Shown: piece after piece, positions 34,885 through 42,843 of the stretch
Numbering within the stretch: the first letter of the stretch is position 1
Layout: the number at the start of each line of letters is the position of its first letter
Assembly: GCA_046540175.1 (NCBI GenBank)
Contig: JBKHFO010000003.1
Span: 1-43,841 of the forward strand
Origin: Candidatus Hydrogenedentota bacterium
Lineage (GTDB): Bacteria; Hydrogenedentota; Hydrogenedentia; Hydrogenedentales; SLHB01
Length of the DNA: 43,841 bases
Direction: 5' to 3'
Notes under the pieces: generated by a model
Told to the model about the DNA's origin: nothing
Databases searched by the model: none
The model's input: only the letters and a program-made list of their open reading frames with translations
Made by a program: the position numbers and the translations under genes

Positions 34885-34937
34885 GTCCATTGGACCGGCT
34901 TGTCCTTCGCGTTCCATTGTCTTATCATTGGATGCCC

Positions 34938-35306
34938 ATGAGCAAGTTCGGCGTAACTCCACAAAAGGAACAAGAACTCCATGAACGCATGGAGGCCTGC
35001 GGGATTCAGGAACGGGATTTGAAGGAGTCGTTTACGCGCTCCGGCGGACCCGGCGGGCAGAATGTGAATCGCACCGCCACGTGCGTGCATCTTGTTCATG
35101 CGCCGTCCGGCCTTGAAGTGAAAATGCAGCAGGCGCGCTCCCAAGGCCTCAACCGGTTTTACGCCCGGCGGCGGTTGTGCGAGCTGTTGGAAGCGCAACA
35201 ACAGGGGAAGGCAAGCCCCGAAGCCCGGCGCCAAGAGAAGATACGCAAGCAGAAGACTCGGCGGCGCCGGCGGCAGAAGAAACAAAAAGATGACGAGTCC
35301 GCGTGA
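34938..35306 (+). CDS. Peptide chain release factor-like ribosome rescue protein (ArfB/RF-1 domain)
   Basis: RSGGPGGQNVN, VHLVHAPSG, RSQGLNR; strongly basic C-terminal tail. Confidence 0.9.
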   Translation: MSKFGVTPQKEQELHERMEACGIQERDLKESFTRSGGPGGQNVNRTATCVHLVHAPSGLEVKMQQARSQGLNRFYARRRLCELLEAQQQGKASPEARRQEKIRKQKTRRRRRQKKQKDDESA

Positions 35307-35354
35307 GGTGTGTGTCCGGGTTTAAGGCCGGGCGTGACAGGAAGGGGAACGGTG

Positions 35355-35876
35355 ATGGGCTATGTCGACCGCAATCTTGAGCCGGGAGAAGAAGTGGTTT
35401 ACCGGGCGAGGCTTCATTGGATGCTGTTTCTGAAGCCTGTCGCGTGGTGGGTGGCCGCTATTGCGCTGTACGTTATCGCGGGCCGTCTCTTGTCCTTTCT
35501 CCCCGCTGAGGCGCACAGTGTTGGCCAAACGGCGCGCACGTGGGGCGGCCTTATTCTTTTCGCGTTGGCGTTTCTTCAAACGCTCAGCGTGCTGCTGACC
35601 TACATCAGCAGCGAATTCGCCGTCACCAACCGCCGCCTTATAGTTAAAGTAGGCCTGGTTCGCCGGGAATCTCTGGAAACGCTCCTCAGCCGGGTGGAGG
35701 GGCTGGACGTGAATCAAACCGTTCCCGGCCGCCTCCTTGACTACGGGACTATTGAGATTCGCGGCATGGGCGGCCATGTTAAGGCTTACGCCAACATTTC
35801 CCACCCTATTGAACTGCGTTCGGCCGTCTACCGCGAAGTGGAGGCCCGCCGCCAACAAACCGTCTACAATCCGTAG
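35355..35876 (+). CDS. Bacterial PH-domain (bPH_2) membrane protein
   Basis: YVDRNLEPGEEV.YRARLHW; two TMs; SEFAVTNRRLIVKVG, GRLLDYGTI; 13-bp convergent overlap with the next gene. Confidence 0.88.
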   Translation: MGYVDRNLEPGEEVVYRARLHWMLFLKPVAWWVAAIALYVIAGRLLSFLPAEAHSVGQTARTWGGLILFALAFLQTLSVLLTYISSEFAVTNRRLIVKVGLVRRESLETLLSRVEGLDVNQTVPGRLLDYGTIEIRGMGGHVKAYANISHPIELRSAVYREVEARRQQTVYNP

Positions 35877-37174
35877 GTGCGCAGTTTGTAGATCAGGTTG
35901 CGGCGGCTGATGCCGAGGAGTTCAGCGGCGCGGCTCTTGTTGCCGCCGGTTTTCTCAAGCGCTTCGAGAATCGCGCGGCGCTGGATTTCCTCCATGTCGC
36001 CCACAAGAACAGAGCCATCACCGGGCTTTTTTTCAGCCTTTTGGAGAGCGGGCGGCAAATCCGCGGGCAGGATGGTCTCCCCGTGAGCCATGATGGCGGC
36101 GCGGGTGATGACGTTGCGCAGCTCGCGGATGTTGCCGGGCCAATCGTAGGCCATGAGAAGGCGCTCGGCGGCGGGAGCGAGACGCTTGTGGTAGCCCTGA
36201 AGAAACTTGGCCGTCAAGGGGAGAATGTCGTCGCGCCGTTCCCGCAGCGGCGGCACGATGATGGCGAAGACGTTGAGGCGAAAATAAAGGTCTTCGCGGA
36301 ACCGGTCTTCCCGCACTTCCGTTTCGAGATCGCGGTTGGTCGCGGCGATAAGCCGCACGTCGCTGTGCAGCGGTCTGCTGCCGCCGATGCGCCGGAAGCC
36401 GCCGGTCTCGAGTACGCCCAAAAGCTTGGGTTGAAGGCTCAAGGGGATCTCCCCAACCTCGTCGAGAAACAACGTTCCGCCGTCGGCCTCTTCGAACCGG
36501 CCCGCACGGGCGTGGTCCGCGCCGGTATAGGCCCCCTTCTCGTGGCCGAACAACTCGGCTTCGATGAGGTTTTCCGGCAGCGCGCCGCAATCGACCCGCA
36601 CCAGGGCCTTGGCATGACGCGGGCTCTGCTCGTGGATGAACTGCGCCACGACCTCCTTGCCCGTTCCGCTCTCGCCAAGCACGAGGGCGCTGGCCTCCGT
36701 CGGCGCCACGCGGGCCGCTTCTTGGAACACCCGGCGTATCGCGGCGCTTTCCGCCACCACGCCCTCTGGCAGGGTCAGCTCACCTTCCTCTCCCCCCGTC
36801 ACGGGCCGGCCGTCTTGCGCAAGGGCGTCATCCACGGCGGCGATGAGTTCATCGAGATCCACGGGTTTTTCGAGGTAGTCGAGGGCGCCCGTTTTGATGG
36901 CGTTGACCGCGTCGCGCACATCGATGAAAGCCGTCAATAGAATGACGGGAAGGGCGGGATGGTCGCGTTTGAGCCGATCGAGCACTTCCAAGCCGCTCAT
37001 GCCGGGCATGCGCACATCCAGCAAGACAAGATCCGTTTGCGGGGCCACTTCCAGGGCTTGCGGTCCGTCCTCGGCGGACGCCACCTCGTACCCCGCCCGG
37101 CGCAGGGCGTTGGTGAGCAGTTGACGCTGACCAGGGTCGTCGTCAACCACGGCTATGGTGTGGTTTTCGGCCAT
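35864..37174 (-). CDS. Sigma54-dependent response regulator (NtrC family, ZraR/HydG-like)
   Basis: REC (VVDDD, LLDVRMP, KP); AAA+ GESGTGKE, GAYTGA, FLDEVGE, WPGNIREL; Fis-type HTH. Confidence 0.95.
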   Translation of the reverse strand: MAENHTIAVVDDDPGQRQLLTNALRRAGYEVASAEDGPQALEVAPQTDLVLLDVRMPGMSGLEVLDRLKRDHPALPVILLTAFIDVRDAVNAIKTGALDYLEKPVDLDELIAAVDDALAQDGRPVTGGEEGELTLPEGVVAESAAIRRVFQEAARVAPTEASALVLGESGTGKEVVAQFIHEQSPRHAKALVRVDCGALPENLIEAELFGHEKGAYTGADHARAGRFEEADGGTLFLDEVGEIPLSLQPKLLGVLETGGFRRIGGSRPLHSDVRLIAATNRDLETEVREDRFREDLYFRLNVFAIIVPPLRERRDDILPLTAKFLQGYHKRLAPAAERLLMAYDWPGNIRELRNVITRAAIMAHGETILPADLPPALQKAEKKPGDGSVLVGDMEEIQRRAILEALEKTGGNKSRAAELLGISRRNLIYKLRTYGL

Positions 37175-37178
37175 GCCG

Positions 37179-38519
37179 CTATTGTACCGGACGCAAGCCG
37201 CGCAACGTAACCCGGGTCCCCTGCTCCGGTTCAGACTCGACTTCAAGCTCCCAGCCATGGGCGCGAGCGATTTGGTCCACGATGGGCAGTCCGAGTCCCG
37301 AGCCGTTATGCGAGCGGGAGAAATAGGGCTCCACCACGTGCGGCAAGTCCTCCGGCGCGATGCCTTGACCGGTGTCCGACACAGCAATATCTACGTAGCC
37401 GTTCCGGCGTCGGGCCTCGATACGCACCACGCCTTCATCACCGCAGGCGCGAACCGCATTCGAGACGAGATTGAGCATGGCGCGGCGAAGGAGATCTTTA
37501 TCCGCCGCCACTTCCAACCCGTTGGGCTCATACTCCAGCTTTATGTTGGACCCCGCCGTCTCCGTCTCTAGCAAAGGAAGAAACTGTTGGAAAAAGGCGT
37601 CCAGCGCAACGGGTTTCTCTTGGGCTTCTTGCGGGCGCGCGAAGCTAAGGAAAAAGTTGATCTGGCCCACGGTCCGGTCGGCCTCGTCCACGATTTCGGA
37701 GGCCATCTGTTTGTTCTCCGTGCTGGTGTCCGGCGAACTCATAATGGACTGGGCCAACCCGCGCACGATGCCCAGCGGATTCTTGGTTTCGTGCGCCAGC
37801 CCCGCCCCGAGCCGGGCAAGCCGCTCATGCTGGGCCGCCCGTTCTTGGGCAAACGCCAACTCGGTTTGCATCTCCTTTTGCCGCATCCGGGACAATAGAA
37901 CGGTGGCGCCAAACGCGATCGCGGCCAACGCAACAGCGGCGTTTAACACAAAGTGGGTTTGCTCTTGCTGGATGGCTTCGTGCATGCCGGTGGTGTCCAG
38001 CACAAGGCCAAGCGTGAACGGCCCAGGCTGCATCCCGCGTTGGTCCGGGCCGCGGCGGCCCATACCCATGCCGCGTCCTCCCCCCCAGCCGTCTCCGTGG
38101 CCTTCTCCGATTCCCGCACCGCCCATGCGCATTCTTCCGGTTCGCGTCATGGCGAGCCAGGTATCGGTTTCCATTACGTTGCCATTGGTGATGGAAGGGA
38201 ACGATTCCGAGAACTCGCCCACCACTATCGGGTCCGCCTCGCCTGTGTCCACCTTCAGCGCCAAAACGTCCGGGGCTTCCGCGAGTTCTTCGAGAACCGT
38301 GCGCAGCCGTTCCGGCGTTTGCTGGCCCATCCGGCCTTGCGCGCGAACGCCGGCCCCCATGGCGTCAAGAATGGTCTCGGCACGCGCGACGGCGGTTTCG
38401 CGGTGATTAGCCGCTTGGGAGCGGTAATCCGCGTAAAGATAGGCCAACGCCATCCCGGCTAACAGGATGGCTGCCGCAATAATCGCCCCTTGCCGGCTGC
38501 GAAGCAAATCCGAAAACAT
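37179..38519 (-). CDS. Membrane sensor histidine kinase (ZraS/HydH-like)
   Basis: Two TMs; H-box LAHETKNPLG; NLVSNA, DTGQGI, GSGLGL boxes; start at MFSDLL. Confidence 0.94.
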   Translation of the reverse strand: MFSDLLRSRQGAIIAAAILLAGMALAYLYADYRSQAANHRETAVARAETILDAMGAGVRAQGRMGQQTPERLRTVLEELAEAPDVLALKVDTGEADPIVVGEFSESFPSITNGNVMETDTWLAMTRTGRMRMGGAGIGEGHGDGWGGGRGMGMGRRGPDQRGMQPGPFTLGLVLDTTGMHEAIQQEQTHFVLNAAVALAAIAFGATVLLSRMRQKEMQTELAFAQERAAQHERLARLGAGLAHETKNPLGIVRGLAQSIMSSPDTSTENKQMASEIVDEADRTVGQINFFLSFARPQEAQEKPVALDAFFQQFLPLLETETAGSNIKLEYEPNGLEVAADKDLLRRAMLNLVSNAVRACGDEGVVRIEARRRNGYVDIAVSDTGQGIAPEDLPHVVEPYFSRSHNGSGLGLPIVDQIARAHGWELEVESEPEQGTRVTLRGLRPVQ

Positions 38520-38608
38520 GATCGGGATCCTAACACGAAGGCCCCGAAGAGGGCGCGCTATCACACCCCCTTCGGGTACAACGGTTCAATTAGCGCAACT
38601 TGAACTGG

Positions 38609-39322
38609 TTACCGTTGACCAGCGCGGGGCCTCATCTGCCGGGGCGGACCAGCCTGTTGTTGACGCGGGGCCGCGCCTCGCGGTCCGCGTCCTTGCCAAC
38701 CCATGGGCGCGGCGTTTTCGGCGTCTTCATCCATCCAGACGCGGCCATAGCCTGGCCCGCCTTGGCCGCGGCCGATGCCGGGTTCGTCAGCCGCCTCGGG
38801 ATCATAATTATCGCAGATCCCATCATCGTCTTCATCCTCGAAGAATGGTCCCTGGCAGAATCCACTGCCGTAACCTGGGCCGCCTTGGCCCCGGCCCATG
38901 CGAGGTTCAGATTCCTCGCTTTCGGGCGCGATCCGCCTCGGCGCAGCTCCCCGGCCGCCAGGGCCCCGGCCCATGGGCGCGGCGTTTTCCGCGTCGTCAT
39001 CCATCCAGACACGGCCGTAGCCTGGCCCGCCTTGACCCCGGCCGATGCCCGGTTGCTCAGCCGCCTCGGGATCGTAATTGTCGCAGATCCCGTCCTCGTC
39101 TTCATCCTCGAAGAAAGGTCCCTGGCGGAATCCCCGGCCATAGCCTTGGCCACCTTGGCCCCGGCCCATGGGGCGCGGCGCGTCTGGAGCCGCGGCTTCG
39201 GCCTGGGCCGTCGTGTCTTGGGTTTGGCCCTCGGCAGTAGCTTCATCCTGCGCATTGGCTGTCAAACTCAGCGTAAGGCCGAGCGCCAACGCGGCTCCGA
39301 GATAACTCATCTTGTACCACAT
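38609..39322 (-). CDS. Secreted Gly/Arg-rich duplicated-repeat protein with DxDxDGICDN motifs
   Basis: AAGGAG RBS; signal peptide ending ANA-Q; two near-identical units spaced 90 aa. Confidence 0.85.
   Translation of the reverse strand: MWYKMSYLGAALALGLTLSLTANAQDEATAEGQTQDTTAQAEAAAPDAPRPMGRGQGGQGYGRGFRQGPFFEDEDEDGICDNYDPEAAEQPGIGRGQGGPGYGRVWMDDDAENAAPMGRGPGGRGAAPRRIAPESEESEPRMGRGQGGPGYGSGFCQGPFFEDEDDDGICDNYDPEAADEPGIGRGQGGPGYGRVWMDEDAENAAPMGWQGRGPRGAAPRQQQAGPPRQMRPRAGQR
38700..39170. repeat. Intragenic direct repeat: about 200-bp block twice, 270-bp period
   Basis: CCATGGGCGCGGCGTTTTC at 38701 and 38971; CCTTGGCCCCGGCCCATG ending at 38900 and 39170. Confidence 0.92.
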
Positions 39323-39513
39323 GGAACTTCTCCTTTCTTACGTGCTCCGTGAGGGGACTTCACGGAAACACCGTGGCCCTTATTAAACGTCTCAAACAGT
39401 CCAGCCTAAAGGAACCTCACTGAAGGCCTCGCAGATTCGCTCATCGCCCTGCGTTCCGATGCCCCGGTTCCGCGTGCTGTGAAACCGCTATTTGTTTGCA
39501 CCGAGTTTGCCGG

Positions 39514-39548
39514 CCCTGCTGTCTCGACCAAAAATCGGGACAGCAGGG
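39514..39548 (-). terminator. Intergenic hairpin after the 97-aa gene
   Basis: CCCTGCTGTCTCGA/TCGGGACAGCAGGG inverted repeat. Confidence 0.55.
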
Positions 39549-39558
39549 ACATAATGTG

Positions 39559-39852
39559 TTAGCGTCGACCGCCTTCACCAGCGCCACCGCCCTCGCCTAG
39601 GCCGCGTCCTGCAGGGTTACCCTGGCCTTGACCGCGCCGATTCACGCCTCGGCCTTGCACACCGTCACCGGTTCCCCGGCGGCCGCCACGGCCATCTCTG
39701 GCGCCATGGATGCACCGGCCATCCTCTGCCGGCTCAAACTGTTCGCAAGCGCCACGTTGTCCTCCACCGCCTCGGGGCGTTTCCTCGGGCACCGCCGAGA
39801 AGCTAAAGGCGAGCGTACAGGCCGCGAGGACCAACATCATCCGATACCACAT
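39559..39852 (-). CDS. Small secreted Gly/Arg-rich protein with a Cys pair
   Basis: AAGGAGGT RBS; signal MWYRMMLVLAACTLAFSFSA; CEQFEPAEDGRCIH; G/R-rich tail. Confidence 0.8.
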   Translation of the reverse strand: MWYRMMLVLAACTLAFSFSAVPEETPRGGGGQRGACEQFEPAEDGRCIHGARDGRGGRRGTGDGVQGRGVNRRGQGQGNPAGRGLGEGGGAGEGGRR

Positions 39853-39963
39853 GGTGTCACCTCCTTTCGTTTCGTTTTTCTATTGCCCGGTTCACTCGTT
39901 CGCCGGGTCTGCCGAACCTGGTGTCCCGTATCCCGGAACACCAGGGCAGAAACTCATGAAACG

Positions 39964-40302
39964 TTACCGCGCGTTGTTGCGGAGTCCGCGTCCGCCGCCA
40001 CGAGCACGGCCATCGCGGGGACCTACGGCTTGCCCACGGCCGGGGCCGCTGCCATCACGCGGCCCCATCGCTTGGCCGCGGCCGGGACCCGAGCCATCAC
40101 GCGGCCCCATCGCTTGCCCGCGGCCTGGTCCATAACCGGAACCATCTCGAGGGCCGTCGCCCTGACCGTCGCGAAGACCTTGGCCTTGGCCGCTTCCATC
40201 TCGCGGCCCCGATCCCGGCGGGTCACACTGAGCTTGCGCCACGGCCGCAAAGCTGAAGAGCAGCGTAAACGCCATCGCTACCACAAGCATCTTGTACATC
40301 AT
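39964..40302 (-). CDS. Small secreted GPRDGSG-repeat protein
   Basis: GGAGG RBS; signal MMYKMLVVAMAFTLLFSFAAVAQA; repeated GPRDGSG(P)GRGQAM. Confidence 0.82.
   Translation of the reverse strand: MMYKMLVVAMAFTLLFSFAAVAQAQCDPPGSGPRDGSGQGQGLRDGQGDGPRDGSGYGPGRGQAMGPRDGSGPGRGQAMGPRDGSGPGRGQAVGPRDGRARGGGRGLRNNAR
40009..40131. repeat. 42-bp tandem repeat, about 3 copies, encoding GPGRGQAMGPRDGS
   Basis: GCCATC(A/G)CG(C/G)GG units begin at 40009, 40051 and 40093. Confidence 0.85.
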
Positions 40303-40392
40303 TGTCTTATCCTCCGTACTACGTTGGTTCGCTTCGTTTTGCCCGTCCACCGGGCTTGCCAGCGGCTCCATTACCACCTGCACCTAAGAAAG

Positions 40393-40409
40393 GGCATATG
40401 CCGTGCCAA
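40393..40409 (-). promoter_or_regulatory. Sigma54 promoter of the secreted-repeat/TCS operon
   Basis: Minus strand TTGGCACGGCATATGCC, GG-N10-GC, about 90 bp above the first start. Confidence 0.78.
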
Positions 40410-40447
40410 CACAAATCCTGGGAAATCCGGGAGTATCGGCACGGCGC

Positions 40448-40495
40448 TATGCAAAACCCGCACAGGCGGGCCTGCAACTGTGCAAAGTTTGCAGC
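40448..40495. promoter_or_regulatory. Two candidate enhancer (bEBP) sites
   Basis: TATGCAAAACCCGCACA and TGTGCAAAGTTTGCAGC, both imperfect TGTGCAA-N3-TTGCACA palindromes, 31 bp apart. Confidence 0.55.
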
Positions 40496-40585
40496 GTTCA
40501 GCTCATGGAGCGATGTGTTCCCTGCATGTGTTTACATCTCCCCTGCCGCTTTTCCACTCTCCACCTGGCAAGTGAGACCTGGCAT

Positions 40586-40880
40586 GGCCTATGCGCACAT
40601 ATTAGATGGTACTGTAGCGCTGGCGGTGTTTGCGGTGTTGCTGGCGGGCTCGATAAGCGCCGCGCCGCCTTTTGGCGCGGTGATGGATTGGCAGGACGCC
40701 ATGAAGGATCATTACCGGGAGCAGGCCCCTGGCCGGGGTGGAGGCGGCAGAGGCCAAGGCCGTGGAGGAGGTGGTCAGGCCCAACTTGAAGACACGGAGA
40801 CCGCAGACGAAGAAGACGTGGCTTCCTCGGATCTTCCAAGCGATACGGGGTTGACGGTACGCTGGCGCGGCGGACGGTAG
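40586..40880 (+). CDS. Possible small secreted Gly/Arg-rich protein (divergent; may be a remnant)
   Basis: Hydrophobic VALAVFAVLLAGSISA, then GRGGGGRGQGRGGGG and an acidic patch; start uncertain; no clear RBS. Confidence 0.5.
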
Positions 40881-40896
40881 CCCCTCCATGGAACAA

Positions 40897-41061
40897 GCCC
40901 CCCTTGTCCCCCTTCAAGGGGGAATCGTACCGCCGGCATCTTGCCGGCACATTAAGCCAAGCCGGCAAGATGCCGGCGGTACGATTCCCTCCTCCAAGCG
41001 GGAAAATGAGAGCGGAACAATTCCCCCTTGGAAGGGGGTGGCCCGAAGGGGCGGGGGATGT
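40897..41061. repeat. Nested REP-like palindromic element
   Basis: Perfect 29-bp inverted repeat at 40920-40948 / 40961-40989, flanked by CCCCCTTCAAGGGGG and CCCCCTTGGAAGGGGG palindromes. Confidence 0.8.
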
Positions 41062-41165
41062 ACGCCTTGTCTAGCCAGCTCGGCCCTTTCGGGAACAAGC
41101 AAATGGCGCGGGCGTCTCCAAGAGATAGCCCACACCACCTGCATTCCGCACATAACCGATCGCGA

Positions 41166-42647
41166 TTACGCCCGTACGTTCCCTTCGTAGTCGAAGTGAT
41201 ACATCCGGGCGAAGGCCCGCCACCGCCGGGCTTCTTCGCGGTTGCCGCAGAATAGCACGGGATGGTGGCCCTGGTGGACGTCAAGCACGTCGTCGACACC
41301 GTCCATCTTCGCCAGGATTCGCGTCGCGCATCCGCCCGTGGGCGGCATCTCGGGCGATTCAATGATCTGGCCCGTCCAACACGCGAGTTTTCCTTCCCCG
41401 CTTTCGTAGCGCGTCAGCATGATAGGCTCGTCCGGGGGCCACTGCACGTCCAGCGCCGGCGTCTTGGGCAGTTGATGCGTGAACGGCCGGATCCAGAAGT
41501 CCGCCGCCGGGCCGTTCGGGCCATGGAGGTTCAGCGCGCACGTGCAGTGCGAGCCAAAGTACTGATTGTCTCTCAGGTTATAGCTCCGATTGTGCAGAAA
41601 ACCCGGGCGATCCATGAGCCAGCGCCCCAGCATCATCGTCAGCGTCGCGTTGAAATCGTTCTCGCACGCGGCCGGAACGAGATTGCCGTTGTTGAGGCAG
41701 AAGCTGATGCAGGGTTTCCGGTGCGCCAGCATCAGGCAGTCGATGGTGATGGCGTCCCCGCCGTACCGGTCCATGAGGGTGTTCACGGTCTTGTGGGCGC
41801 GCATGGCCTCGACGAAATACTCGTCCGCCACATCCACAACGCGGGCCGCTCGCTGCTTAAAGGCCATCGCTTCTTGCTCCATCTCGCTGTCCGGTTCGAT
41901 GGAGTCGAAGAGTTCGTTGTATTCCTCGGAAGGCACTCCAAGCACTTCCATGCCGAAGGCCTCTTCGACATGACCTTCCCACAGGTCCCCCGAACGCACC
42001 CGTAGCAAGCGGCTTTGGCCAAGCATCTTCCGCGCGCGGACCGCCCGCAACCCTTCTTCGATGCCGTCCCAGTCCTCGATGCCTTGAATGAAGTGAATGC
42101 CGTCCGTCCGGTACATGCCGCGAGGCAGTCCGTGTTGCGCGCCCAAGGGCTCGTACACGATGGCTGTTGGCGCCGCCTCCGTGGCGATGGCCTCCGCCGC
42201 GTTACCCAGCGTGTTGTAGAAATTGATCACCAAGACCGCGTCGGGGGCCTCATCGTTTGTGCGGTTGATGAATTCCTCCACCTTGGCTTCTTGCCAGATG
42301 GGATCCGGCGCAAACGACACCTCGACCCCAAGATTCCCGGCCATCTCTTCGATGTGTTGGGTGAACTTCGCCCGTTGCTCGTCAAATTTAAACAAGTAAG
42401 AAGGATACGTGAACCAGTTGTTGGCCGCCCACTGGTCTTCCATCTGGCCTTCGTGGACCACATTCTCCGGCGGATACAAAAACACCGCCTTCACTTTGGC
42501 GGCGTCTTTTTCGATCGGGGCGCGTTCCGCATTGGCGGCCGCCACCCCCGCCACGGTTGGCCCCATGAGCCCGGCCGCTGTTATCGCGCTGCTGGCCGCC
42601 ATGAATTGGCGCCGGTTCATCTGGTTGAACTCGCAAGATTCACACAT
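41166..42647 (-). CDS. Tat-exported L-fucose/L-arabinose isomerase-like protein
   Basis: MCESC..MNRRQFM twin-arginine signal; DAITIDC, PAACEND, SHCT, GCAT and GHHPVL motifs; AGGAGAGG RBS. Confidence 0.75.
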   Translation of the reverse strand: MCESCEFNQMNRRQFMAASSAITAAGLMGPTVAGVAAANAERAPIEKDAAKVKAVFLYPPENVVHEGQMEDQWAANNWFTYPSYLFKFDEQRAKFTQHIEEMAGNLGVEVSFAPDPIWQEAKVEEFINRTNDEAPDAVLVINFYNTLGNAAEAIATEAAPTAIVYEPLGAQHGLPRGMYRTDGIHFIQGIEDWDGIEEGLRAVRARKMLGQSRLLRVRSGDLWEGHVEEAFGMEVLGVPSEEYNELFDSIEPDSEMEQEAMAFKQRAARVVDVADEYFVEAMRAHKTVNTLMDRYGGDAITIDCLMLAHRKPCISFCLNNGNLVPAACENDFNATLTMMLGRWLMDRPGFLHNRSYNLRDNQYFGSHCTCALNLHGPNGPAADFWIRPFTHQLPKTPALDVQWPPDEPIMLTRYESGEGKLACWTGQIIESPEMPPTGGCATRILAKMDGVDDVLDVHQGHHPVLFCGNREEARRWRAFARMYHFDYEGNVRA

Positions 42648-42843
42648 GATGCCCTCTCCTTTGTTCCCGGTTTCGCCATGACGCTTCAACGGCGCCAGCG
42701 GCTTGATTTCCTCTCCCCGAAGAAAGCGCCTGCATTATTCCACGCCCTTTGTGGGCGGCGCAAACGGCTTCTTTGCTGGGCGGCAAGGCGCTGTCTGGGA
42801 AAGCGGCGGGCGCACGGTAGGTATAATGAGATTAAGGGGGGGA

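Follow-up and report, generated by a model that had tools for sequence, protein, structure and literature searches.

In Escherichia coli and Salmonella the ZraPSR system, which serves the envelope stress response associated with zinc, joins a membrane kinase with a periplasmic sensor to an NtrC-type activator of sigma-54-dependent transcription and to a co-regulated periplasmic accessory protein, and zraP and zraSR are described as being read from divergent sigma-54 promoters (PMC4987338). A second point of reference are the ferrosome gene clusters, which according to a preprint hold DUF4405, DUF2202, P1B ATPases and RxRxR-motif proteins, the Arg-rich motif being N-terminal (10.1101/2020.01.10.902569); DUF4405 is described as binding haem b and is known from outward electron transfer (PMC11334425). 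Here, we compare with these systems a locus in a stretch of 43,841 nucleotides (nt) from a Candidatus Hydrogenedentota bacterium (contig JBKHFO010000003.1, assembly GCA_046540175.1; the whole stretch is called the window), in which the genes of three small exported proteins, g1, g2 and g3, together called the cargo, precede those of a sensor histidine kinase and a response regulator.

The locus is probably a sigma-54-dependent, self-activating two-component operon that is conserved across the phylum. On the minus strand of 35864-40500 the order of transcription is sigma-54 promoter, g1, g2, g3, kinase and regulator, and the following features were assigned:

40450-40493, no strand: enhancer region with two palindromes, the perfect TGCAAA-C-TTTGCA at 40481-40493 and the imperfect TGCGGGTTTTGCA at 40450-40462
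40394-40408, minus strand: sigma-54 promoter TGGCAC-N5-ATGC, TGGCACGGCATATGC, about 90 nt upstream of g1
39964-40302, minus strand: g1, 112 amino acids (aa), N-terminus MMYKM, exported, with GPRDGSGPGRGQ(A/M) repeats
39559-39852, minus strand: g2, 97 aa, N-terminus MWYRM, exported, Gly/Arg-rich, with the core ACEQFEPAEDGRCIHGARDG
38609-39322, minus strand: g3, 237 aa, N-terminus MWYKM, exported, with two repeats of about 100 aa, each containing FFEDEDEDGICDNYDPE and GRGQGGPGYGR
37179-38564, minus strand: open reading frame (ORF) of the ZraS-like sensor histidine kinase, HisKA and HATPase_c by Pfam
35864-37177, minus strand: NtrC-type sigma-54 activator (response regulator), Response_reg, Sigma54_activat and HTH_8 by Pfam

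Promoter, genes and conservation in the phylum

The initial annotation had proposed a sigma-54 promoter with two palindromic enhancer-like sites upstream, and this proposal was borne out by an exact promoter match, by the location of both palindromes and by their footprint across loci of the phylum. TGGCACGGCATATGC is the only match to TGGCAC-N6-TGC without mismatch in the window; it has GG at -24, GC at -12 and canonical spacing, the genome contains rpoN, and the conserved inverted repeats lie upstream, the perfect palindrome at a distance of 85 nt and the imperfect one at 54 nt. When one mismatch is allowed the window holds 14 matches versus 12.4 expected, and one-mismatch sites are therefore meaningless on their own. 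Among the 31 strict sigma-54-like sites of the whole genome only that at 40394-40408 has TGCA-N5-TGCA within 250 nt upstream, a pattern with 43 occurrences in the 3.5-Mb assembly and an expectation of 0.003 per 260 nt.

How general is this arrangement? A profile of the g3 family, described below, matches 51 of 135 genomes of the phylum, and at 24 of the 29 best cargo loci a homologue of the window kinase is encoded within 1.5 kb. Extension of 23 of these loci, which come from related genomes spanning five GTDB families so that the counts are not independent, showed in all 23 one or two cargo genes and, immediately 3' of them, the kinase gene (34–51% identical), followed in 22 by the regulator (59–71% identical; the contig of L072 ends first), which was also found at L097 and L100. 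The absence of such co-occurrence had been named beforehand as a finding that would speak against the initial annotation; on sequence comparison, the layout of cargo, kinase and regulator is conserved in the phylum. The strict pattern places a sigma-54 site 5' of the first cargo gene at 15 loci, and a relaxed pattern or visual inspection adds another 8. Of the 23 extended loci, 20 have TGCA-N5-TGCA upstream of the promoter, 17 of them at -73 to -75. In one genome (G021) promoter and palindromes are found directly 5' of the kinase gene.

At three loci of the same genus (L081 in G003:C391, L082 in G001:C105 and L083 in G002:C372) the contig breaks where the kinase gene starts or within its 5' end, or a sulfatase gene precedes the kinase. 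The repeat genes upstream probably fragment the assemblies of this genus, and for this reason the absence of cargo at these three loci is uncertain.

Each of the three small genes has a Sec-type signal peptide (e.g. ...AVAQA/QC, ...LTANA/QDE) and a ribosome site of the type AGGAGG, AAGGAGG or AAGGAG 7–9 nt 5' of the ATG, in agreement with the earlier description of three small exported genes with strong ribosome-binding sites, and they share the N-terminus M(M/W)Y(K/R)M and a composition high in Gly, Arg, Gln, Pro and Asp. Orthologues of g1 (81% identical) and g2 are encoded in the same-genus genome G001, both behind the same promoter and palindrome, and comparison with them yields a ratio of nonsynonymous to synonymous change (dN/dS) of 0.21 at a proportion of synonymous differences (pS) of 0.45 for g1 and of 0.21 at a pS of 0.34 for g2, the core of g2 being 100% conserved at the latter pS. 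The locus is also covered by contigs of four public sequencing runs from two studies, in which insertions and deletions within the genes preserve the frame: 42 nt corresponding to one g1 repeat (deleted in one strain), 75 nt in g3 (likewise deleted in one strain) and 2+4 nt in g3. The dN/dS of g1 and g2 together with these in-frame strain differences argue that g1, g2 and g3 are real genes. A crude genome-wide screen for ORFs with signal peptide, at least 20% Gly and at least 7% Arg returned five, three of them from this locus, namely g1, g2 and the divergent ORF discussed below; g3 falls outside this cut at 19% Gly.

The ATG of the regulator gene lies 1 nt past the stop codon of the kinase gene, and the alignment of orthologues indicates that the kinase probably starts at the ATG at 38519. 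Folding of the 238-nt spacer between g2 and g3 yielded one further feature:

39514-39548, minus strand: perfect 10-bp stem-loop just 3' of the g2 stop codon

Over its full length the spacer does not fold with unusual stability (z -1.3), and as the stem-loop lacks a T-run it is not called a terminator; scans for terminators and sigma-70 promoters gave counts that did not exceed the shuffled expectation.

Cargo proteins, kinase and regulator

The initial annotation had treated the three small proteins as one novel set. This view had to be given up, since g3 falls into a large existing family and g1 and g2 are of a different repeat type. A phmmer search with g3 over 1.84 billion proteins gave 14 matches at E<=1e-3 (best 4e-8), including P0003 and P0012, which are both labelled PF27309 (MJ0753_N, Pfam 38.1; the label is precomputed and the name is that given by the Atlas). 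All 14 relatives are small and secreted and contain repeated F-x-D-x-[DN]-x-D-G-[VI]-C-D-N motifs with Gly/Arg/Gln linkers between them. The profile built from these relatives finds 673 proteins at E<=1e-3 among 8000 candidates scored, many of them labelled PF27309, and its range comprises Clostridia, Bacteroidota, Ignavibacteria, Chloroflexia and Hydrogenedentota. When compared by hhalign with a separate alignment of 20 PF27309-labelled proteins, g3 reaches a probability of 98.0% (E 1.6e-13). These profile comparisons, made via labelled members rather than by a gathering threshold, place g3, as a divergent member, in a widespread and uncharacterised family of secreted proteins with DxDxDGxCDN repeats. 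It shares the invariant D..G.CD columns of PF27309, the Asp, Gly and Cys of the motif being invariant across phyla, but differs in having only two motifs of the form D-x-[DN]-x-[DN]-G-x-C-D after the signal peptide, one Cys in each motif and acidic stretches of Glu/Asp; the motif is absent from g1 and g2.

Less sensitive searches returned little. A word-indexed homologue search with g3 alone found none at E<=0.01 among 8000 candidates, a single-protein search with g3 in 41 relatives gave weak matches (E of at least 0.002) that pointed to the loci described above, and Pfam gave nothing above threshold for g1, g2 or g3, the score of g3 against DUF5320 (PF17253) being 15.7 bits at a cut-off of 27. 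Our search for literature on the PF27309/MJ0753_N-type family found none; supplementary tables on ferrosomes and flavinylation may list related proteins.

The small proteins had been expected to be disordered, and for g3, the one of the three that was modelled, this expectation was borne out by structure prediction: the AlphaFold2 model has a mean predicted local distance difference test score (pLDDT) of 54.6, is mostly disordered and has no helix beyond the signal peptide, and only the two DxDxDGxCD motifs reach a pLDDT of 78–85. The nearest match to the family profile in the PDB is an EF-hand protein at E 0.96, a hint only.

How are g1 and g2 related to this family? In hhalign comparisons with the family their signal peptides alone align, and the mature parts remain below 1% probability. 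A genome query with g1 matched 80 of 135 genomes, nearly all of the matches being low-complexity noise in long unrelated frames, and G001, G127, G133 and G134 were kept; a screen following a g1 match at G004:C63 found no cargo. In G127 and G133 g1-like proteins with [RQ]DG[STRQ]G repeats are encoded 5' of the orthologous kinase, and G134 encodes a hybrid protein with one DxDxDGxCDN motif and g1-type repeats. From this hybrid, from the shared MWYKM-type N-termini and from the adjacency of the genes we infer that g1 and g2 could be a fast-evolving RDG(S/T)G-type offshoot of the same cargo. At many loci, in various phyla, the family members have a short basic tail at the C-terminus (e.g. ...GRNRR, ...GQGNR, ...GLRNNAR), which may be a sorting or anchoring signal.

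The regulator has the make-up of an NtrC-type enhancer-binding protein, with a receiver domain (Response_reg, E 2e-32), a sigma-54-interacting AAA+ domain (Sigma54_activat, E 4e-68) containing GESGTGK and, as the GAFTGA-type loop, GAYTGA, a match to AAA_lid_14 and a Fis-type helix-turn-helix (HTH_8, E 1e-16). Its best NCBIfam models are AtoC (NF008469), NtrC and ZraR (NF007689), all below cut-off, with 442.1 bits for AtoC (equivalog cut-off 714) and 403.7 bits for ZraR (760). The kinase is organised like ZraS, with transmembrane helix, periplasmic sensor, transmembrane helix, HisKA and HATPase_c and with a sigma-54 activator as partner; ZraS is both its best NCBIfam model (NF007688, aligned over the full length, residues 26-454, E 1e-53) and its best relative in the PDB (9jfj, 6.7e-32, cytoplasmic part only), but at 182.8 bits it stays far below the 479-bit equivalog cut-off.

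The periplasmic sensor domain (window positions 37959-38435) was modelled from 24 orthologues with a pLDDT of 81 and comprises a long and a short helix, a sheet of five strands and a helix at the C-terminus, with a disordered Gly/Arg-rich insert between the last two strands that contains an exact GRG in 15 of the 24 orthologues. Foldseek gave no match to this model at E<=0.001, the best rows being Cache/PDC sensors at E 0.04–0.4, and the sensor profile found nothing below E 0.28 among PDB sequences; the model suggests a PDC/Cache-like fold. A complex prediction for a dimer of the kinase sensor with mature g3 scored 0.00 versus a mark of 0.32, which gives no answer either way.

The ZraP-ZraSR-like layout proposed in the initial annotation thus stands with respect to regulatory logic, synteny and divergent promoters, but not with respect to membership, as the tests for ZraS, ZraR and ZraP failed. 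Further differences to ZraPSR are that the cargo is mostly disordered, lacks the Metal_resist/CpxP fold, is present in up to three copies and is encoded 5' of the kinase in what is probably a shared transcription unit.

Divergent partners and neighbours in other phyla

Upstream of the promoter two features face away from the cargo genes:

40580-40594, plus strand: divergent sigma-54-like site TGGCATGGCCTATGC, a one-mismatch match
40586-40880, plus strand: remnant of a DUF4405 membrane cytochrome gene, comprising the last transmembrane helix and a Gly/Arg-rich tail, by alignment to the G001 protein

The site is identical in G001, where it lies 5' of an intact DUF4405 gene (PF14358, 3.2e-14, 53.6 bits versus a cut-off of 26.7) whose product has, at its C-terminal end, a third transmembrane helix followed by a Gly/Arg tail. 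The window ORF matches residues 103-140 of this protein with 89% identity, about 390 nt including the DUF4405 domain being absent from the window relative to G001, and it fails the DUF4405 domain test because only the part behind the domain is kept. In three of the four runs contigs read across the junction with no sequence inserted, and the contig of the fourth stops about 10 nt past it. The comparison with G001 led us to reject this ORF as a fourth cargo gene, and since its ATG lies inside the promoter-like site its translation is doubtful.

Divergent sigma-54 sites are also found at L058, L060, L064 and L068. In two of the 23 extended loci (L058, L068) the divergent partner is a gene for a DUF2202 ferritin-like protein, on which the only literature we found is the ferrosome preprint (10.1101/2020.01.10.902569). 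In four of the 23 (L060, at 2417-2809 on the minus strand, L064, L066 and L077) it encodes a secreted protein of 131 aa without Pfam or NCBIfam family, preceded in L060 and L064 by a minus-strand sigma-54 site.

In other phyla 16 loci were examined, one of which (L023) is an unrelated giant protein; the neighbour families, ATPases and extracytoplasmic function (ECF) sigma factors given here refer to the loci named. At four Firmicutes loci (Clostridia-type metagenome-assembled genomes, MAGs; L009, L018, L020, L021) the family gene is directly followed by genes for proteins of about 160 and about 250 aa; at the one locus checked, the first is an ECF sigma factor and the second an RsgI-like anti-sigma factor. 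By analogy, such a unit of family gene, ECF sigma and anti-sigma factor may be the Gram-positive counterpart of the sigma-54 arrangement. A CopA-type heavy-metal P1B ATPase is encoded about 115 nt upstream of the family gene in L010 and L015 (Bacteroidales/Rikenella MAGs). L012 (Bacteroidales) has the order ECF sigma factor, anti-sigma factor, Metal_resist (ZraP/CpxP family), family gene and two DUF2202 genes, so that here the cargo family shares an operon with a ZraP-type gene, and L017 (Bacteroidota) has the order NtrC-type regulator, DUF2202, family gene. At one Chloroflexia locus regulator and kinase are encoded downstream of the family gene.

Function of the exported proteins and surroundings of the locus

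What could these proteins do in the cell envelope? The initial annotation had suggested chaperones, metal buffers or kinase ligands as possible roles. The reading we favour, to which we give about an even chance, is an autoregulated module for metal stress in the envelope, in which disordered periplasmic cation-binding accessory proteins do a ZraP-like job with non-homologous cargo. From the arrangement we infer its steps. The membrane kinase with its PDC-like periplasmic sensor would phosphorylate the NtrC-type activator, which would bind the TGCA-N5-TGCA sites about 75–85 nt upstream of the -24/-12 promoter, and the promoter would drive g1-g2-g3 and, by read-through, kinase and regulator. 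The exported, largely disordered cargo, that is g3 with thrombospondin-type-3-like DxDxDGxCD loops between Gly/Arg linkers and g1 and g2 as putative RDG(S/T)G-type derivatives, would serve as multivalent periplasmic binders or buffers of metal cations during envelope metal stress, presumably the signal; feedback onto the kinase via the Gly/Arg loop of the sensor is plausible. The metal-binding part of this reading is drawn from the recurrence of metal genes in the neighbourhood and from the cation-loop motif with its added Cys.

Several observations weigh against the metal-stress module. The Metal_resist (PF13801), CpxP and Spy models are unmatched at E<=1 by g1, g2 and g3 as well as by the divergent ORF. 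With one Cys in g1, two in g2 and DxDxDG in neither, cation binding is weakest for the two genes nearest to the promoter. The alignment of the 24 sensor orthologues shows no conserved His or Cys; the residues that are invariant or nearly so are Arg, Gly, Ala and a single Asp, a set as compatible with an anionic or carboxylate ligand as with a metal. The metal genes in the neighbourhood differ in their metal (Cu, Fe, Zn), and therefore no single ion is indicated. The genome itself, at 91% completeness, lacks an intact DUF4405 domain as well as any DUF2202 gene. Finally, three loci of the phylum have cargo without two-component system, one of them keeping the sigma-54 site, and in G001 the kinase gene follows the sulfatase gene with g1 and g2 on another contig, so that cargo and kinase are not always one operon.

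The regulatory half of the locus is textbook, and it provides a handle on a large unstudied protein family, whose small exported repeat proteins recur under the control of envelope signalling (two-component, ECF) and beside copper, iron and zinc genes. If these proteins truly buffer metals or act as feedback ligands in a disordered state, the task of ZraP, CpxP and Spy would have a second, unfolded solution, and what intrinsically disordered proteins do in the periplasm of bacteria would become directly testable.

The main rival, which partly overlaps with the metal-stress module and which we judge unlikely, is a periplasmic iron-redox or iron-mineral module in which two-component control would extend over DUF4405, DUF2202 and secreted proteins with Gly/Arg tails acting as scaffolds or solubilisers of iron or iron phosphate, similar to ferrosome accessory proteins; the genome of the window would have a reduced version with the secreted proteins only. 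Such a module would account for the DUF4405 gene as divergent sigma-54 partner with the same Gly/Arg tail in G001, for the DUF2202 genes that are divergent in two of the 23 extended loci and adjacent in two Bacteroidota loci (L012, L017), and for the haem b that DUF4405 is described as binding (PMC11334425). It also resembles the ferrosome (fez) clusters and the DUF4405 cytochromes associated with flavinylation, in that DUF4405, DUF2202, P1B ATPases and Arg-rich motifs travel together (10.1101/2020.01.10.902569). However, DUF2202 or DUF4405 occurs in a minority of loci, four having the 131-aa secreted protein instead, and the genome of the window lacks both domains, yet g1 and g2 are under purifying selection. 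In addition, the proteins of the window type are exported and under the control of a sigma-54 two-component system, the Arg-rich motif is located in exported regions rather than N-terminally as described for ferrosomes, and neither a FezB-type ATPase nor ApbE was seen at the cargo loci.

Improbable, in our estimate clearly more so than the iron-redox module, are Ca2+-binding envelope proteins, whose thrombospondin-type-3-like wires would stiffen or tether the envelope or block carbonate or phosphate minerals in a hypersaline mat and would respond to envelope stress rather than to transition metals. DxDxDG is the classical motif of Ca2+ loops, and the DxDxDGxCD of g3, with Cys-Asp following DxDxDG, resembles the calcium loops of thrombospondin type-3 repeats, the OprF linker, Excalibur and EF-hand proteins; it is also the sole confidently modelled part of g3. 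A DGVCDN string reportedly occurs in the Pseudomonas aeruginosa OprF-OprI-PopB chimeric vaccine protein, where it presumably belongs to the OprF linker. The Excalibur consensus is DxDxDGxxCE, in which the spacing from G to C differs from the motif of the g3 type. The habitat would be suitable, as the sequencing runs with contigs of this locus carry microbial mat or hypersaline lake metagenome as their label. On the members tested, however, no Pfam model of these families reaches its cut-off: Excalibur (PF05901) gave 18.2 bits versus 22 on the one family member scored, and TSP3_bac (PF18884) was unmatched by g3 and by the cargo of L002, L006 and L055. Moreover, g1 and g2 lack the motif, the family is also found in gut Clostridia and Bacteroidales, and the neighbours point to Cu, Fe and Zn.

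A GRGxG motif is present in every extracytoplasmic part of the regulon, namely the cargo linkers, the sensor loop of the kinase and the tail of the DUF4405 cytochrome. It would be a long shot, though a consequential one, to take GRGxG as a shared assembly tag by which exported Asp/Cys and Arg/Gly polyampholytes form a metal-dependent coacervate or mineral-control matrix around sensor and cytochrome, with the kinase reading the loading state of the cargo and not the free ligand. If true, this would be a new principle of two-component sensing and the first RG-motif condensate in a bacterial periplasm.

The cargo could also be thought of as hydrophilin-like periplasmic protectants, akin to late embryogenesis abundant (LEA) proteins, that act under osmotic or desiccation stress and in which the repeats matter only by composition. 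We consider this very improbable: the extreme Gly/Arg/Gln/Asp composition, the predicted disorder, the hypersaline habitat label and the fast turnover of the repeat type under constant regulation would suit such a function, but the invariance of the motif Asp, Gly and Cys across phyla argues for a specific site, and the fully conserved core of g2 at a pS of 0.34 and the metal-related neighbourhood speak against it as well. Least credible of all is that the small ORFs are non-genes (open frames in GC-rich DNA) or cationic secreted peptides such as bacteriocins regulated by a two-component system, since the products, small, cationic, variable and of low complexity as they are and with sequences unmatched in the protein collection (as were five of six other window proteins, perhaps due to the choice of start), are set against a dN/dS of 0.21, in-frame indels, signal peptides, ribosome sites and conserved synteny, by which the non-coding view is largely refuted, and since no transporter, immunity or maturation genes are near the small genes.

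On the far side of the regulator gene the plus strand encodes an RF-1-domain protein of 138 aa and ArfB-like size (34890-35306), followed by a bacterial PH-domain membrane protein (35310-35876), whose gene is convergent with that of the regulator. On the other flank, 41166-42689 on the minus strand encodes a 507-aa protein with a twin-arginine-like signal (Pfam TAT_signal 18.2 bits, cut-off 22.7) and no other Pfam family. Between this convergent gene and the DUF4405 remnant, at 40881-41100, lies a block of short repeats with internal inverted repeats, resembling repetitive extragenic palindromic (REP) elements, which has 295 BLAST matches across the contigs of the genome and a summed contig depth of 54–1257 versus about 7 on its flanks.

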